A stretch of 64,000 nucleotides of DNA from Alphaproteobacteria bacterium (GTDB taxonomy: Bacteria > Pseudomonadota > Alphaproteobacteria > MPNO01 > UBA830): positions 3,680,001 to 3,744,000 of the forward strand of contig OZ251539.1 in the NCBI GenBank assembly GCA_965243135.1, read 5' to 3'. This document shows, in pieces, positions 28,778 through 54,530 of the stretch. The notes under the pieces are model-generated. The model was not told the origin of the DNA. It did not search any database and saw nothing but the letters and a program-made list of their open reading frames with translations. A program made the position numbers and the translations under genes. Within the stretch, counting starts at the first letter, position 1, and the number at the start of each line of letters is the position of its first letter.

Positions 28778-30378
28778 TTGCTGTGTAACTAACCCCGAGC
28801 TGCCGGCCACACGAAGCCGTTCCGCAAATCGAAGATTTTTTTCGCGGCGGCGCTTGCCGTTCGGAGGTCTTGCGGCGCTGAGGGCTGCCTCGTAACGCCC
28901 TGTCTTCACACCGCGCTGCCTGGACCCGGAACGGCTATGTCGCGGCGCTCAGGCCGCCTGTCGTGCTCGTGCCCGCCGTGGCCGCCGCACCGCCCGTTGC
29001 GGCATGCGCCTTCGTCGTCCTGCGACGTTGTACGTTTCGAGCATGCGGATCCAACGAGGAGCATTGCGCCTCACCGCCTCGTAGTCGGTCTCAGGATCCC
29101 GGTAAGGCTTGCCGGTCCGAAGGACGCAGTAGACCACGCAAAGCAGTTTGTGCGCATTGGCGACGATGGCGCGTTCCGCAGCGGGGCACCTTATGGTAGC
29201 CTTGGAATTGACAGTTGTCGGTTCGTGCGGCACCGTGCGCACACTCGATCAACACCCTGCGCAGCGTTGCCTTTGCGGCTTCGCCCGCTGCGTCGCTTGC
29301 CTGCGCTTTTGTCGTTGCCGGGGCACACGCCGGACTAGGCGGCGCAGCGGACGGCGGAACCGAACACGCCGAGGTCGGGGCCAAGGGCGGAGGCCGACTC
29401 CTTGTCGATCCCGGGGATCGTCTGCAAGAGAAGAAGTTGCTTCTCGAAGCCGTCGAGGCCTTCCCGAATGAGTTTGTCGTAGTGCGCGATCTTCTGCTCG
29501 CATGGCCGTGGCAGCAGGTCGCCTTGCCGGCTGTACGGGTCGAGGTCGCAGGCGAGGGCTTCGCGTATCGCGCTTGTTGGCGACATGACGGGAAAGAGAC
29601 GCGACGATTTTCTCCCGCGACTCTCCGTCGATTATACCAAATGTACTATTAAGTGACCTGTATAACAAATGACTGTACTCGTTTATGTGCAACGAGAATG
29701 GGCTGCTGCAACCCCCGCAAAAACAAGTCATTTAATTGTGGGATTGGTATTGCTCCGTGAAGAATGCGCATCCCGGTGACGCCGAACACGTCCGAGAGCA
29801 CTCCGCCGATGCCGCCGCGGTCCAAAATCTTGTGGACACGGTTGCGCAACCGAGCGCAGCCATCCGCCGGGCGGCTCAGCACGCGCAGACGCCGGAACTC
29901 GCGCGGCAGGACCAGACTCGGAGCCGCCAGACCGAATTTGCAGGCCAGCCACCTGCTGTCGGCGACTTTTCCGGCCCCTGCTTGACGTGCTGCCCATGCA
30001 ACAGGTCGACGCCGGCGTCTTTCAGCGCGGAAGTTCCCAGGCCGGTCGCCTCCGCGGCGGTCACGCCATGGCCGAGCAGCCACGCCACGAGATCGCGCAT
30101 TCGGCTCTCCAGGATGCTGAAAGCCTCGGTCTCGGAATCGCCACCCTCCGGCGAACACAATCGCACCGTCGCAGTGATCTCCATCTTGTGAACGTCCAGA
30201 CCCGCTGCGCGCGGGTGGACAACGTGCATCTTGTCAGTTAGCATCGACGCTTCCATGTGAGAGTTGGCGGGTGCGGGGGACCTTCGGAACGAAAGTCACG
30301 TGCCGGTTCAGCCATTTTGTTGTACGTCCACAGCGCGGAGCCGGGAACAATACGGGGCTTGAGGCCGTTGGCACAGTT
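28778..30378 (-). mobile_element. IS110 family element, pseudogenised
   Basis: AAGLDVHK N-terminus, LLQTIPGI, LRRVLIECAHGAART, AIVANAHKLL; multiple frameshifts. Confidence 0.85.
29634..29750. mobile_element. 117-bp AT-rich MITE-like insert within the IS110
   Basis: Imperfect 24-bp terminal IRs ataccaaatgtactattaagtgac / gtcatttaattgtgggattggtat. Confidence 0.6.
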
Positions 30379-50252: not shown

Positions 50253-51590
50253 ATGGATTCAAGGCTGTCCAAGTGCCTCGGGGCCAGCCGGCTCTTGCGT
50301 CCGGAACCGTTGCTGTTCCTTCTCTGGGCGCTTGAGCTCGCGCGTCTCGCTTGGGATTCCGAAACGGCGCGATCCGCGGGCGGCCTCATGATGGCGGCTT
50401 ACGTCGTATTGTCGATCATGCGCTTGCGGCGAGCTACAATGTGGCTCTGCGCGCCGCTCGCCTTCCTGGCGGCCGCTCTAGCGCAGGCGTTCGGCTCGTG
50501 GAGCGAAGTCGTTCGGGGTTTCGAGAGTGCCGCGATCTTCATGGCCTTTTTCGGCTCCATCGTGCTTTTGCGCGGCCTGGCGGATCGGCGTCCCGAGATT
50601 TCCCGCACGCGCAGGCTGTTCGCCGGCCTCGGCGAAAAGGAAACTTCGGGCGCGTTTCTCGTCGGCGCGCACGTCATCGGCTCGATTCTGGTGGTGGGCG
50701 CGCTGGCGATCTTGGCGTCCATCGCGAAGGGCGGCGCAACGGCGCGGCGGCGCGCCGCCGAGGCGAGTCAACGCGGCCTGTGCCTCGCGCCCCTATGGTC
50801 TCCCTTCTGGATCGCGAGCGCATTCGTCGCCCGCCAGATTCCGGGAGTTCCCGCGTGGGAAGTCATGACGCTCGGCCTTGCGCTCGCCGCGACCGGACTG
50901 ACGGTCGCCCATCTGATCTACGCGCGAAGGACCGGGATGCCGGAGCTGTGGAGAGCGGTGCGAGGATTCGCCCCGCTCCTGCCTCCTGTCGCGCTCTGCG
51001 CGGCGATGATCGCGGGGCTGTCGGCGGCCGCCGGGTTCGGCACCCTCGAAGCGTTGATCGCGACGGTGCCGGTTCTGGCGCTCGTCGCGCTCGCGTCGCA
51101 GCGAGGCGTTCGTTTCGGGCCTCTCGCGGGAGATCTCTGGCGCGGCGCGGGACAGGTTCGCGACGAGATCGTGATCGTTGCGACGGCTCTCGTCCTCGGA
51201 CGCGTCCTCGAAAGCGCCTTGTCCGGAATCGACCTCGCGGTCGGCGCGTTGCCGCCGTGGGCCGCGGTCGGCTGCGTCGTCGCTGCGATCACCATCGGAG
51301 CTCTGGTGGGAATTCACCAGCTTGTCTCCGTCGTCGTCGCGCTGGTCGTTTTCGCGCCCCTGACAACGAACGTGGCGGACGTCGTCATGACGGAAGCGGC
51401 CCTTCTCGGCTGGGCGTTCGCCTCCATGGTGGGCGTAACCGCCGTTTCCACGGCGACGGCGAGCGCGATGTTCTCGGTTCCTCGCATCCAGTTGGTCTAC
51501 GGCCCCAATTTGATGTTCGTAGCCGCATTCGGGGCGATCTCGGTCGTTCTGCTCGCGATCGTCAACGAGATCCTTTCCGCTCCGTCCTGA
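50253..51590 (+). CDS. Multi-pass membrane protein (putative permease)
   Basis: ~12 hydrophobic segments, RG...APLWSPF motif. Confidence 0.7.
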   Translation: MDSRLSKCLGASRLLRPEPLLFLLWALELARLAWDSETARSAGGLMMAAYVVLSIMRLRRATMWLCAPLAFLAAALAQAFGSWSEVVRGFESAAIFMAFFGSIVLLRGLADRRPEISRTRRLFAGLGEKETSGAFLVGAHVIGSILVVGALAILASIAKGGATARRRAAEASQRGLCLAPLWSPFWIASAFVARQIPGVPAWEVMTLGLALAATGLTVAHLIYARRTGMPELWRAVRGFAPLLPPVALCAAMIAGLSAAAGFGTLEALIATVPVLALVALASQRGVRFGPLAGDLWRGAGQVRDEIVIVATALVLGRVLESALSGIDLAVGALPPWAAVGCVVAAITIGALVGIHQLVSVVVALVVFAPLTTNVADVVMTEAALLGWAFASMVGVTAVSTATASAMFSVPRIQLVYGPNLMFVAAFGAISVVLLAIVNEILSAPS

Positions 51591-51639
51591 GCGCCGCGCG
51601 CCGCGATTTCGCCGACTCGCAGCCGTCGATCGAATCTCC

Positions 51640-51960
51640 ATGAAATTCGTCGCAAAAAATCCTTCAGAGGTTGTAAGATAGACAAATCGAGAGCCCAATA
51701 TTTTTGATTTCCGTATTCGTTGGCGTTTGTTTCAATGCCAAGGGCTTCGCAATAAGCATAAACTCTCGCCTTGGAATTAGGTGAAACGTAATTGTCCCAA
51801 GCGCTTTTGAGGCAACCCTCGCAGGAATCAAAGCAATCGTATGTTCTTTCATGTCCAAGAACAGCTATTCTTTCCAAAAGCGTTTCAAGGCATCCAGGGT
51901 CGCGGTCATTCGGAAAGAGGAAAAAATGCAAATCGGCAAAGAAAGCTGATGAATTTCATT
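51640..51960 (-). pseudogene. C-terminal fragment of a DUF3226-like protein
   Basis: FFLFPND..PGCLETLL..KARVYAY..YW.L....LQPLKDFL; AT-rich; N-terminus lost at the IS junction. Confidence 0.55.
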
Positions 51961-52011
51961 CTCCAAGGTTATTCGCTCTTCTAATACCAAACCTCCCCCT
52001 ATCAACTCCGA

Positions 52012-53120
52012 TGGGATGGACGCTCCTCCCCGGCGGCATCACGTTGTGCCATAGTGCTGTCGAACCACAACATATGGAGAGAGGACGGAACAGGTCAGCA
52101 TAATCGGCCTGGCGAAGCGGAGTTTCTCGCTTCACGGCGCTCGAGCGGACGGCGCGTTTCGCCGGACCCTCGGCCGCCCGAAGGTTCCGGACTTCCTGAA
52201 GCGACAGCCGAAGTGCATCGTGGAGGCGCAGCTCGCACTACTGGGGCCGGGAGAAGCTTGGCCACGAGGTCAGGTTGTCGCCGCCCGTCAAGCCGTTCGT
52301 CAAGCGTCGGAAGAACGACGCGGGCGGACGCCGAAGCGGCACCGACGTCGTCGCCGTGAAGACCGAGGAACGGCAGTGGGCGGCATGCGCGCAGCCTGGC
52401 AGCGGCGGACGGCGCTTCGCGGTCGCGGAGTTCGGCCTCGTGGTTCCCCAAGGCACCGCCAACGTCAGGAAGCTCGAAGATGCGTTGCCGCCTGCCCGAC
52501 CTGGTACGCCGCACTGTTGGAGCAGCAGTCCGAAAAAGAAGATCGACGAGCGAAAGGGCGCTTGCGAAGGAGGACTCGAAGCGGAGCATCCGGGGTCGGT
52601 CCCTTGACCGCTTCGGCAGCCTTCGCGCCGGGAGAACCGGGGCGCGACTTCGCGGCCTGACCGACGCCGGGAGAGGACAGCGCGGGCGGCAAAGTCAGGC
52701 TCGGCCACGGGCCAGCGTGACAGAGCATCGGCGCAATGTCGGTCGTTCGGTTGGCGAAACGACGCGGGACGGGCTCGTGGCTGGCGCTTGCGACCAAGCC
52801 TCCGAAGCTGGCGGCGGCTGACCAACGGCGCGTACCGCCTGGGCACTGCTGACGAAGAAGGAGTTCTACCAGGCGGCGGCTGCCGACTGAGGGTTTCCCG
52901 GGATCCGACGGCGCCAGCGCCGGACGTCGGGGGCAAGGACGGAGGGAGAGTAAGGGCAAATGGTCGCGGGCAAACCAGCTGCACTTCTTGTGCGGCACGC
53001 ACTTGGACCCGGTCCGCGTATCGCTGTCCGCGGCCACTGAAGCCGCATCCAGATGCACGAATGTACTTGACGCACCGAGCTTTCCAAAATGCTTGCATCA
53101 ACGGGGGCGTCCATACACGA
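52012..53120 (+). mobile_element. IS1111-type (IS110 family) element, decayed
   Basis: Subterminal IRs atggacgc.cc (52016) / gggggcgtccat (53103-53114); KPFVKRRKND, GVGPLTASAF, RDFAA; downstream non-coding region. Confidence 0.88.
52900..53100 (+). ncRNA. Putative seek/bridge RNA region of the IS1111 element
   Basis: Non-coding region 3' of the transposase; TGCACTTC (52980-52987) is complementary to the insertion junction GAAGTGCA (53119-53126). Confidence 0.5.
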
Positions 53121-53248
53121 AGTGCAATACCGGCGGTCGGCAGCGCCAAGGCAGTACGGGTTGGCCGGTGAGTCAAGGTGCCGGGGCTGTGGGGGCGTTC
53201 GCCGCAGGGAGGGCGTAGCCCGCCCGGAGGCGAACGCCCCCGCCGCAG
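53121..53248. repeat. IS30-end relic homologous to 1968-2074
   Basis: Shared tgcaataccgg.ggtcggca...cgccaaggcagta...gggttggccggtgagtcaagg...ggcgaacgcccccg.cgcagc. Confidence 0.85.
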
Positions 53249-53386
53249 CCCTCTCTCGCGGCTGCCGCTCGCCGCGCTTCGGAGACCCAGGGCGCAGTGA
53301 AGGCGCCCGGCCCGCCCCGAAGCCGGCGGCTCGAAGCGGGGCGGCGCAGACCTCCGCCTCCGGGCGGACGGCGGCCGACGAAAAAA

Positions 53387-53415
53387 TTGAACGGCGCGAA
53401 CGCCTGGCGTATGAT
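53387..53415 (+). promoter_or_regulatory. Sigma70 promoter, repeat unit 1
   Basis: TTGAAC-N17-TATGAT. Confidence 0.7.
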
Positions 53416-53441
53416 CGCTGTCCCGAACTCGCCGAGGCAGG

Positions 53442-53747
53442 GTGAAACTCATGGAACAGTTCTCTCCCGAACTAATCGCCATTCTTGGCGTCGGCGTTGC
53501 CGTTCTCAGCCTCGGCGTTGCGGTTATGGGGCTGGTTCTTCATCAGGGCCGTCGGCTCGACCGCCGGATCGACGCCCTCGCCGTGCACATGAACGAACAA
53601 CACCGGCAGACGAACGAGCAAATCCGGCAGACGAACGAGCAAATCCGGATTTTGAGCGATCGCGTGGCGCGGATCGAGGGCAAACTCGATCTGTTCGAGA
53701 CTTTCATCACGCACCGGAGCGAACCGCCGACCGTGGCGGCGGAGTAG
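53442..53747 (+). CDS. Small N-terminal TM + coiled-coil protein, copy 1
   Basis: Hydrophobic N-terminus, RQTNEQI heptads, LSDRVARIEG; alternative start ATG 53451. Confidence 0.8.
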   Translation: MKLMEQFSPELIAILGVGVAVLSLGVAVMGLVLHQGRRLDRRIDALAVHMNEQHRQTNEQIRQTNEQIRILSDRVARIEGKLDLFETFITHRSEPPTVAAE

Positions 53748-53922
53748 CGCGCGAAGCCCGGCAAGCCGCACCGCCCGACGCAGCCCTCTCTCGCGGCTGC
53801 CGCTCGCCGCGCTTCGGAGACCCAGGGCGCAGTGAAAGCGCCGAGATCCGCCCCGAAGCCGGCGGCGCGAAACGGGGCGGCGCAGACCTTCGCCTCCGGA
53901 CGGACGGCGGCCGACGAAAAAA

Positions 53923-53951
53923 TTGAACGGCGCGAACGCCTGGCGTATGAT
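53923..53951 (+). promoter_or_regulatory. Sigma70 promoter, repeat unit 2
   Basis: TTGAAC-N17-TATGAT. Confidence 0.7.
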
Positions 53952-53977
53952 CGCTGTCCCGAACTCGCCGAAGCAGG

Positions 53978-54262
53978 GTGAAACTCATGGAACAGTTCTC
54001 TCCCGAACTAATCGCCATTCTTGGCGTCGGCGTTGCGGTTATGGGGCTGGTTCTTCATCAGGGCCGTCGGCTCGACCGCCGGATCGACGCCCTCGCCGTG
54101 CACATGAACGAACAACACCGGCAGACGAACGAGCAATTCCGGCAGACGAACGAGCAAATCCGGATTTTGAGCGATCGCGTGGCGCGGATCGAGGGCAAGC
54201 TCGATCTGTTCGAGACTTTCATCGCGCACCGGAGCGAACCGCCGACCGTGGCGGCGGAATAG
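53978..54262 (+). CDS. Small N-terminal TM + coiled-coil protein, copy 2
   Basis: Same as copy 1 except 7 aa fewer in the TM region and 2 substitutions. Confidence 0.8.
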   Translation: MKLMEQFSPELIAILGVGVAVMGLVLHQGRRLDRRIDALAVHMNEQHRQTNEQFRQTNEQIRILSDRVARIEGKLDLFETFIAHRSEPPTVAAE

Positions 54263-54530
54263 CGCGCGAAGCCCGGCAAGCCGCACCGCCCGACGCAGCC
54301 CTCTCTCGCGGCTGCCGCTCGCCGCGCTTCGGAGACCCAGGGCGCAGTGAAAGCGCCCGGCCCGCCCCGAAGCCGGCGGCGCGAAACGGGGCGGCGCAGA
54401 CCTTCGCCTCCGGACGGACGGCGGCCGACGAAAAAATTGAACGGCGCGAACGCCTCCCGCCGGCCCCGGTCTTTCGACCGGCCCGCAATGGTGCTACCGT
54501 GGAACGCTCATTCCGTTCGGAGCGAAGAAC

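Follow-up and report, generated by a model that had tools for sequence, protein, structure and literature searches.

Several insertion sequences (ISs) of the IS110/IS1111 type home to the terminal repeats of other mobile elements. According to the reference list of PMC11208160, IS4321 and IS5075 home to the terminal repeats of Tn21-family transposons, and IS1383 integrates into the inverted repeats of IS1384 in Pseudomonas putida H. The RNA of such systems, a seekRNA or bridge RNA, is 70–100 nt long and binds the transposase. As described by Siddiquee et al. (2024, PMC11187229), IS1111 seekRNAs carry the complement of the top strand of the target first and that of the bottom strand second, with an overlap at the core. 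According to Durrant et al. (2024, PMC11208160), 93% of IS1111 elements have a predicted bridge RNA at their right end.

In this study, we analyzed a 64-kb stretch of DNA, hereafter the window (G000:C1:3680001–3744000), from a 6.1-Mb genome assembled as one contig, in which a decayed IS1111 element splits the end of an IS30-family IS. As far as the entries in that reference list go, IS4321 and IS5075 resemble this element in being IS1111-type, in having subterminal repeats and in occupying one position and orientation inside another element's terminal repeat, but their host is a Tn3/Tn21-family transposon, whereas the host here is an IS30-family IS. IS1383, by its entry there, is likewise an IS110/IS1111 element that targets the inverted repeat of another IS, but its host IS and its organism differ from those here. 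Insertion targeted at the ends of other mobile elements is already known, and IS30-family ends are an added target; no IS30-end target was found in the literature on IS1111 together with IS30 and on the IS110 family together with IS1383, a search whose scope ended before the supplementary target tables of PMC11187229 and PMC11208160, which may include one. We consider it very probable that the element is a dead IS1111-group IS whose DEDD recombinase was formerly steered by RNA to IS30 ends through the 5' strand of an internal loop.

Results

Structure of the inserted element and its junctions

Features are on the + strand unless otherwise indicated. The inserted element spans positions 52012–53120 (1109 bp), beginning with TGGGATGGACGC and ending with GCGTCCATACACGA; CGA stands at both junctions, so the element can alternatively be placed at 52009–53117. 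The left half of the split target (51999–52011) reads ctatcaactccga and is the tip of an IS30 right end (CTATCAACTCCGA), the sharp outer border of this repeat family lying directly before position 51999. The right half (53121–53250), which starts with agtgcaataccgg at 53121–53133, is the inner part of a solo IS30 right end; it includes a G+C-rich hairpin at 53186–53246, and no IS30 transposase follows it on the 3' side. An uninterrupted target, CTATCAACTCCGAAATGCAATACCGG, is located at 1955–1980, at the outer end of an IS30 relic. This sequence has no other match in the window, and none of 100 shuffles yielded any. Beyond the junction, the filled site (53118–53203) and the empty site (1965–2063) match at 74.7% over 99 nt. 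A filled site with a shared CGA, subterminal repeats and approximately 100 bp of flank homology had been described in a first-pass annotation of this DNA, and all of these were found. The 26-nt empty site listed in that annotation also exists; opposite the guide it has GAAATGCA, which mismatches the guide at one position, and the filled site has GAAGTGCA instead. Inside the transposase remnant, CCGAAGTGCA at 52208–52217 reproduces 10 nt of the target across the insertion point, as it does in another copy, L004; it may be a chance match or a pseudo-target.

The subterminal inverted repeats, ATGGACGCTCC at 52016–52026 and GGGGCGTCCAT at 53104–53114, are 11 nt each and 91% complementary, repeats of about 11–13 bp being typical of the IS1111 group. 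When the element is written as 52009–53117, with CGA counted on the left, the left extension beyond these repeats is CGATGGG (7 bp) and the right one ACA (3 bp), the lengths given for the IS1111 family (PMC11187229). Transposase remnants in two frames were located within 52014–52819 (approximately 52014–52487 and 52592–52819) by tblastn with P0066, a protein containing PF01548 and PF02371, at 34–43% identity; the same query matched another copy, L003, at 55–63% identity over three frames. In the window copy, the start codon is gone and the stop codon of the frame, TGA, is at 52888–52890, followed by a non-coding region of approximately 230 bp (52891–53120) on the 3' side of the transposase gene. 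L003 is the best locus for the profile NF033542, with pieces at model positions 1–95, 98–237 and 246–342 in three frames; Pfam gave no match on its single raw frames. No intact transposase of the element's family was found in the genome, none of the 13 NF033542 matches reaching the 140-bit cut-off. A protein search with a fragment from a relative returned thousands of matches (at least 7955 candidates at E ≤1e-20, 8000 being scored), and most among the matches listed are approximately 340 aa long and contain PF01548 and PF02371. Relatives in other genomes with a locatable left end have approximately 1.36–1.38 kb between their ends, and the window copy is therefore short of approximately 260 bp.

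Remnants of a DEDD transposase, subterminal repeats, the extensions, a 3' non-coding region, a single target and orientation, and the lack of a target duplication are the characters of the IS1111 group, and by this anatomy we assign 52012–53120 to that group of the IS110 family. The IS1111 identity suggested earlier is thus borne out by the transposase remnants, the repeats, the non-coding region and the site- and orientation-specific insertion. Another IS110-family transposase fragment (29266–29502, − strand; NF033542 positions 196–280, one TAG stop) is outside the lineage of this element as far as examined.

Copies of the element and their flanks

The genome contains 15 matches to the element. 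The longest copies are L002 (1176 bp, 89% identical) and L003 (1273 bp, 83%); L004 and L005 are partial copies, and the remaining ones are stubs. We read the flanks at 14 loci related to the element, and at nine of them (the window copy, L002, L003, L005, L007, L008, L010, L012 and L014) the junction lies in IS30-end sequence. Both junctions are readable in the window copy, L002 and L003, where they take the form CTATC(A/G)ACTCCGA, element, AGTGCA(A/G)TACCG, with identical insertion position and orientation. Stubs of the 5' end remain at L007, L008, L012 and L014, and each has on its outer side the left half of the target, intact or diverged. A 3' part survives at L005, with AGTGCACGG next to it, and the 3' stub at L010 runs into AGTGCAACATGCGTGGTGGCTGACCGACCG, which belongs to the interior of the IS30 left end (75% over 201 nt). 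The right end of the element always points to the IS30 interior. A recognizable target flank was absent at L004, L006, L009/L011, L013 and L015. Tabulated by flank, the copies share one kind of site rather than sitting in unrelated sequences, in agreement with the target specificity that had been proposed.

The IS30-family target

One intact IS30-family element is present in the genome (G000:C1:329839–330687; NF033563, 277.6 bits; 377-aa open frame), and the relic in the window retains transposase remnants at 2175–2804 on the − strand (NF033563, 122.5 bits; two pieces, two TAG stops). In both, the target repeat is the end that comes after the transposase gene. The two ends of the intact element align with each other over approximately 25–40 nt in inverted orientation, including GAAGTGCAATA; its flanks are mirror-like (..CCC / GGG..) with no direct repeats, and its exact tips are uncertain. 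The target repeat family has 46 copies in the genome, all with a sharp outer border at which CCCG is followed by CTATCAACTCCGAAG, and it matches positions 1300–1456 of the intact IS30. When the whole IS30 was compared with the genome by BLAST, 79 clusters were obtained, approximately 10 of which include pieces of the body; approximately 40 cover only positions 1300–1456, and a dozen only part of the left end. The body fragments at approximately 10 loci therefore point to a long decay history of the IS30 family in this genome. Approximately 40 solo right ends persist beside these approximately 10 loci with body pieces.

On these alignments, the targets are IS30 ends, mostly as solo fragments, and the earlier claim that the element targets an IS30 end stands: the repeat corresponds to the last 100–150 bp of the intact IS30, and L010 is in a left end. 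The repeat could instead be a host intergenic one, a REP- or MITE-like promoter module captured by or lying beside IS30, and the element would then be an ordinary repeat-targeting IS1111, like ISPa11 or ISPpu9 on REP, and no IS30 parasite; we regard both parts of this reading as improbable. It draws on the fact that IS30 transposase sequence adjoins only three of the 46 repeats (the intact copy, the window relic and a relic at 3606318–3607431), the fragments with the right end alone being so numerous, and on the makeup of the repeat, which by eye reads outward as the hairpin and then TTGACT-18 nt-CATACT, often with a gene start 10–20 nt from the border. However, the intact IS30 carries GAAGTGCAATA inverted at its left end, L010 is inserted in an IS30 left end whose inner sequence is unlike the right-end repeat, and fragments of the IS30 body are scattered over approximately 10 loci, all of which favor IS30 ends as the target.

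The outer flank is A+T-rich (G+C <0.5) at 10 of the 46 repeats, and A+T-rich genes on the − strand adjoin both IS30 ends in the window. One of these genes (1160–1876) has a weak match to the UDG superfamily (E 0.0014, below the cut-off), and the other (51497–51931) encodes a C-terminal portion of a DUF3226-like protein that covers profile positions 111–206 of 208. Since the latter gene is truncated at its 5' side, the IS30 end beside the filled site more likely cut into it than drives it from the outward promoter of the repeat. On the other side, 53250–54350 consists of two tandem units of approximately 536 bp, each encoding approximately 100 aa (53442–53747 and 53978–54262), and the stretch 53222–53300 is repeated at 53756–53835 and 54271–54350.

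A common RNA scaffold in relatives

We searched species-representative genomes for a 19-nt motif of the non-coding region (TGGACCCGRTCCGCGYATC) and obtained at least 119 stretches, most of them in alphaproteobacterial assemblies, with a few chance matches. The parsed set comprised 95 motif instances (84 unique), and those without a right end were dropped (16 in relatives and one in L005); with stricter end-finding, 59 instances were kept, and seven more had no upstream anchor. The instances share one order of parts: GGGAAAACCAG, approximately 10 variable nucleotides, a small hairpin, approximately nine variable nucleotides, TGGACCCGGTCCGCG and, farther on, the subterminal repeat. RNAalifold on 28 sequences paired CCA with TGG, added an outer stem and placed both variable strands in one internal loop; one pair of the inner hairpin survives 16 double changes.

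Reverse-complementing the first variable stretch gives the final two bases of the element plus the first 6–8 bases of its right flank, as seen with GGTATGTCCG for CG, GACATAC (L118), GGTATGTGTG for CG, CACATAC (L076), GGTACCGCCG for CG, GCGGTAC (L126) and CGGGCTTTCG for CG, AAAGCCC (L098). Over 29 guide types, each scored by its best match in a 10-nt frame with the tandem arrays of L103 excluded, the guides matched their own right junctions at a mean of 6.9 of 10 positions and the junctions of others at 5.04, and none of 10,000 permutations reached the observed total. The second variable stretch is a copy of the left flank, such as GTAAGCGAT with GTAAGCGA and CAATTTTGAT with CAATTTTGA, each followed by T. 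For this slot, 13 types, which are not independent in that many share one guide, scored 7.15 of 9 against 5.28, and one of 10,000 permutations reached the total. A small register range was allowed in the guide scores, with an equal range for the controls. The first-pass annotation had suggested a check of guide–target covariation, and the 5' loop strand does track the right flank in these 29 types.

Some relatives depart from this arrangement. L142 combines a guide of the L076 type (GGTATGTGTG) with the right flank of L112 (GCCATGTGGGTCC), possibly through recombination between related elements. L103:494–938 is a tandem array of an RNA-plus-right-end module, with four motif copies at a spacing of 142 bp and the end of the left-guide strand fused to the right tip, and L051:918–1149 is a 213-bp tandem of the whole RNA region and right end. 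Both arrays look like products of self-recombination at the guide DNA.

Closer members of the compact lineage were sought by exact-pattern scans of metagenome contigs. The first scan gave no match, and the single match of the other was discarded as a chance one inside an unrelated gene of an A+T-rich contig. Among 41 genomes including that of the element itself, only weak partial matches were found beyond its own genome; in a plasmid collection, none of the 443 records covered 80% of the query, and the best 15 of the 443 were 64–71% identical.

The putative right-target guide of the window copy

A covariance model was built from 25 relatives in other genomes, with sequences of the own genome excluded. 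It detected a seekRNA/bridge-RNA-like scaffold at 52956–53070 of the window (39.7 bits, E approximately 2e-8), the only other match in the window having an E value of 0.67, and it scored L003, L002, L004 and L005 at 58.4, 47.9, 46.8 and 31.6 bits, respectively. With Rfam, only two tRNAs in the window reached the gathering score, and a search of 51900–53400 and 1850–2250, which include the non-coding region and the target repeat, produced no credible match at E ≤10.

In the model alignment, CUGCACUUCUU is the poorly conserved 5' strand of the internal loop, and it contains the candidate right-target guide, TGCACTTC, at 52980–52987, directly 3' of AAACCAGC. This 8-mer had been pointed out beforehand; it is present, is complementary to GAAGTGCA of the filled site, and falls inside the variable guide loop and not outside it. 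When its neighbors are included, 11 of 12 positions are complementary to the right junction. The strand UGCACUUC pairs with GAAGTGCA, that is, with G of the core and AAGTGCA, while C of the core is mismatched.

It was also cautioned at the outset that an 8-nt match is modest, and rightly: with 1.25 matches expected in the window, TGCACTTC has three, a count attained in 12 of 100 shuffles, so taken alone the match is within chance. The match might then be coincidental, or it might be structural, the strand pairing with CTGAAGT/CCGAAGT of the later hairpin loop, with the target chosen by the protein or by another part of the element. A second guide is missing, as discussed below, and GAAGT of the later loop can indeed pair with ACUUC. 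However, in the 29 types described above, changes in the right flank are matched by changes in the homologous loop strand, and the later loop is nearly constant (GTGTGACGTG) in L055, L095 and L104 despite their different right flanks; because it is near-identical beside different flanks, this loop is no target guide. In addition, occupancy follows the perfect 8-mer: four of the 11 right-end repeats with a perfect GAAGTGCA are occupied versus none of the 35 with at least one mismatch (hypergeometric p approximately 0.002, by hand calculation), although shared ancestry of the repeat variants could account for part of this contrast. We therefore consider a coincidental or structural match very unlikely and regard the 5' loop strand as the right-target guide.

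Target versions such as GAAGCGCA and GAAATGCA differ from GAAGTGCA, and the occupancy counts suggest that one mismatch may exclude a site. The left-end site at L010 also reads GAAGTGCA, and each end of the intact IS30 has a perfect site that is empty. The guide slot of L004 reads CGCGCTTC, which would suit repeats of the common GAAGCGC form; this fit is no more than suggestive, the right flank of L004 being lost.

The missing second guide

In the window copy, GCACT (52999–53003) forms the 3' strand of the loop, in the slot where relatives have a 9-nt copy of the left flank; a full strand for the present target would read CAACTCCGAT. In all five copies of the genome that keep the region, this strand is 7–8 nt shorter than in 25 of 25 relatives, consisting of CGC(A)ACT with TGGACCC at once thereafter. 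The slot of the window copy agrees with its own left flank at four of nine positions, and the hairpin that separates the loop strands of this copy lacks another 6 nt. The first-pass annotation had noted that a second guide is not evident in this decayed copy; that is so, but the absence is not confined to the window copy and extends to all five. The other four are only 76–89% identical to the window copy.

We looked for a bottom-strand guide elsewhere in the element and found no match of at least 6 nt to the left half of the target except ATCAAC near the right end, which was rejected as a left guide on the grounds that it belongs to a scaffold stretch common to relatives with other targets. 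The later hairpin loop (CACTGAAG) was rejected as the missing left guide as well, being near-constant despite differing right flanks.

Divergent left halves were used at L008 and L010, for instance TTCAAGTTTGA of the IS30 left end versus ATCAACTCCGA, and every readable right half keeps AGTGCA. It is conceivable, though doubtful, that the recombinase was naturally half-guided and that a single working guide sufficed for this lineage to reach at least nine IS30 ends. The short loop would in that case be ancestral rather than a product of decay, as its presence in copies that differ from the window copy by 11–24% suggests, and the left half would be recognized by the protein or from the donor side, if it is read at all. 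The alternative that remains is a defective sublineage moved in trans by a master copy that has since been lost.

A near copy of the right tip is present in the scaffold at 53053–53061 (ATGCACGAA versus ATACACGAA at the tip). By eye, this segment changes together with the right tip, with ACACACG, ATAGACG, AAACATG, ACAGATG and ACACATG appearing in both places, and it is what a donor-binding segment would look like.

Discussion

What we observed directly is the anatomy of the element, its repeated insertion into one kind of target, and where the right-target guide lies and how it covaries with the flank. These observations suggest the following mechanism. While the element was active, an RNA from its 3' non-coding region would have steered the DEDD recombinase. 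The internal loop of this RNA would flank a small hairpin, and its 5' strand would pair with the top strand of GAAGTGCA, a sequence that occurs in both terminal repeats of the IS30-family element of the same genome. Recombination at the shared CG(A) would then have placed the element in one orientation, approximately 10–13 bp inside the IS30 end, with no target duplication. That the RNA was made and acted as a guide is inferred from homology with tested IS1111 elements.

The predicted RNA is comparable to the seekRNAs described for ISEc11, ISKpn4, ISPst6 and ISPa11 in PMC11187229, with which it shares its place in the non-coding region 3' of tnp and the order of the guides. In the seekRNAs tested there, both matches overlap at the core, as they also do in relatives of this element, but the bottom-strand match is missing in the present lineage. 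The likeness to those elements is one of architecture, read here from DNA sequence. With the bridge RNA of IS621, as presented in PMC11208160, it has in common a two-guide internal loop around a hairpin and a segment mirroring the element's own end; unlike that RNA, it is encoded at the right end, and its putative donor segment is not in a simple internal loop. Both of these differences are given for IS1111 members in the same source.

By analogy, the splitting of a terminal repeat could reasonably be expected to disable or immobilize that IS30 end. Insertions were seen in relic ends only, and the sole intact IS30 has none; this pattern is consistent with such immobilization and is no demonstration of it.

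This genome is useful in that the guide, both IS30 ends and target sites with and without an insertion are all legible in it. New insight into the mechanism may come only from the short form of the second guide strand. The mostly alphaproteobacterial IS1111 clade to which the relatives belong, with one alignable RNA scaffold and at least 29 right-target guides, amounts to a natural reprogramming table, and the IS30-family ends join the short list of mobile-element termini that are targeted by IS1111-type elements.
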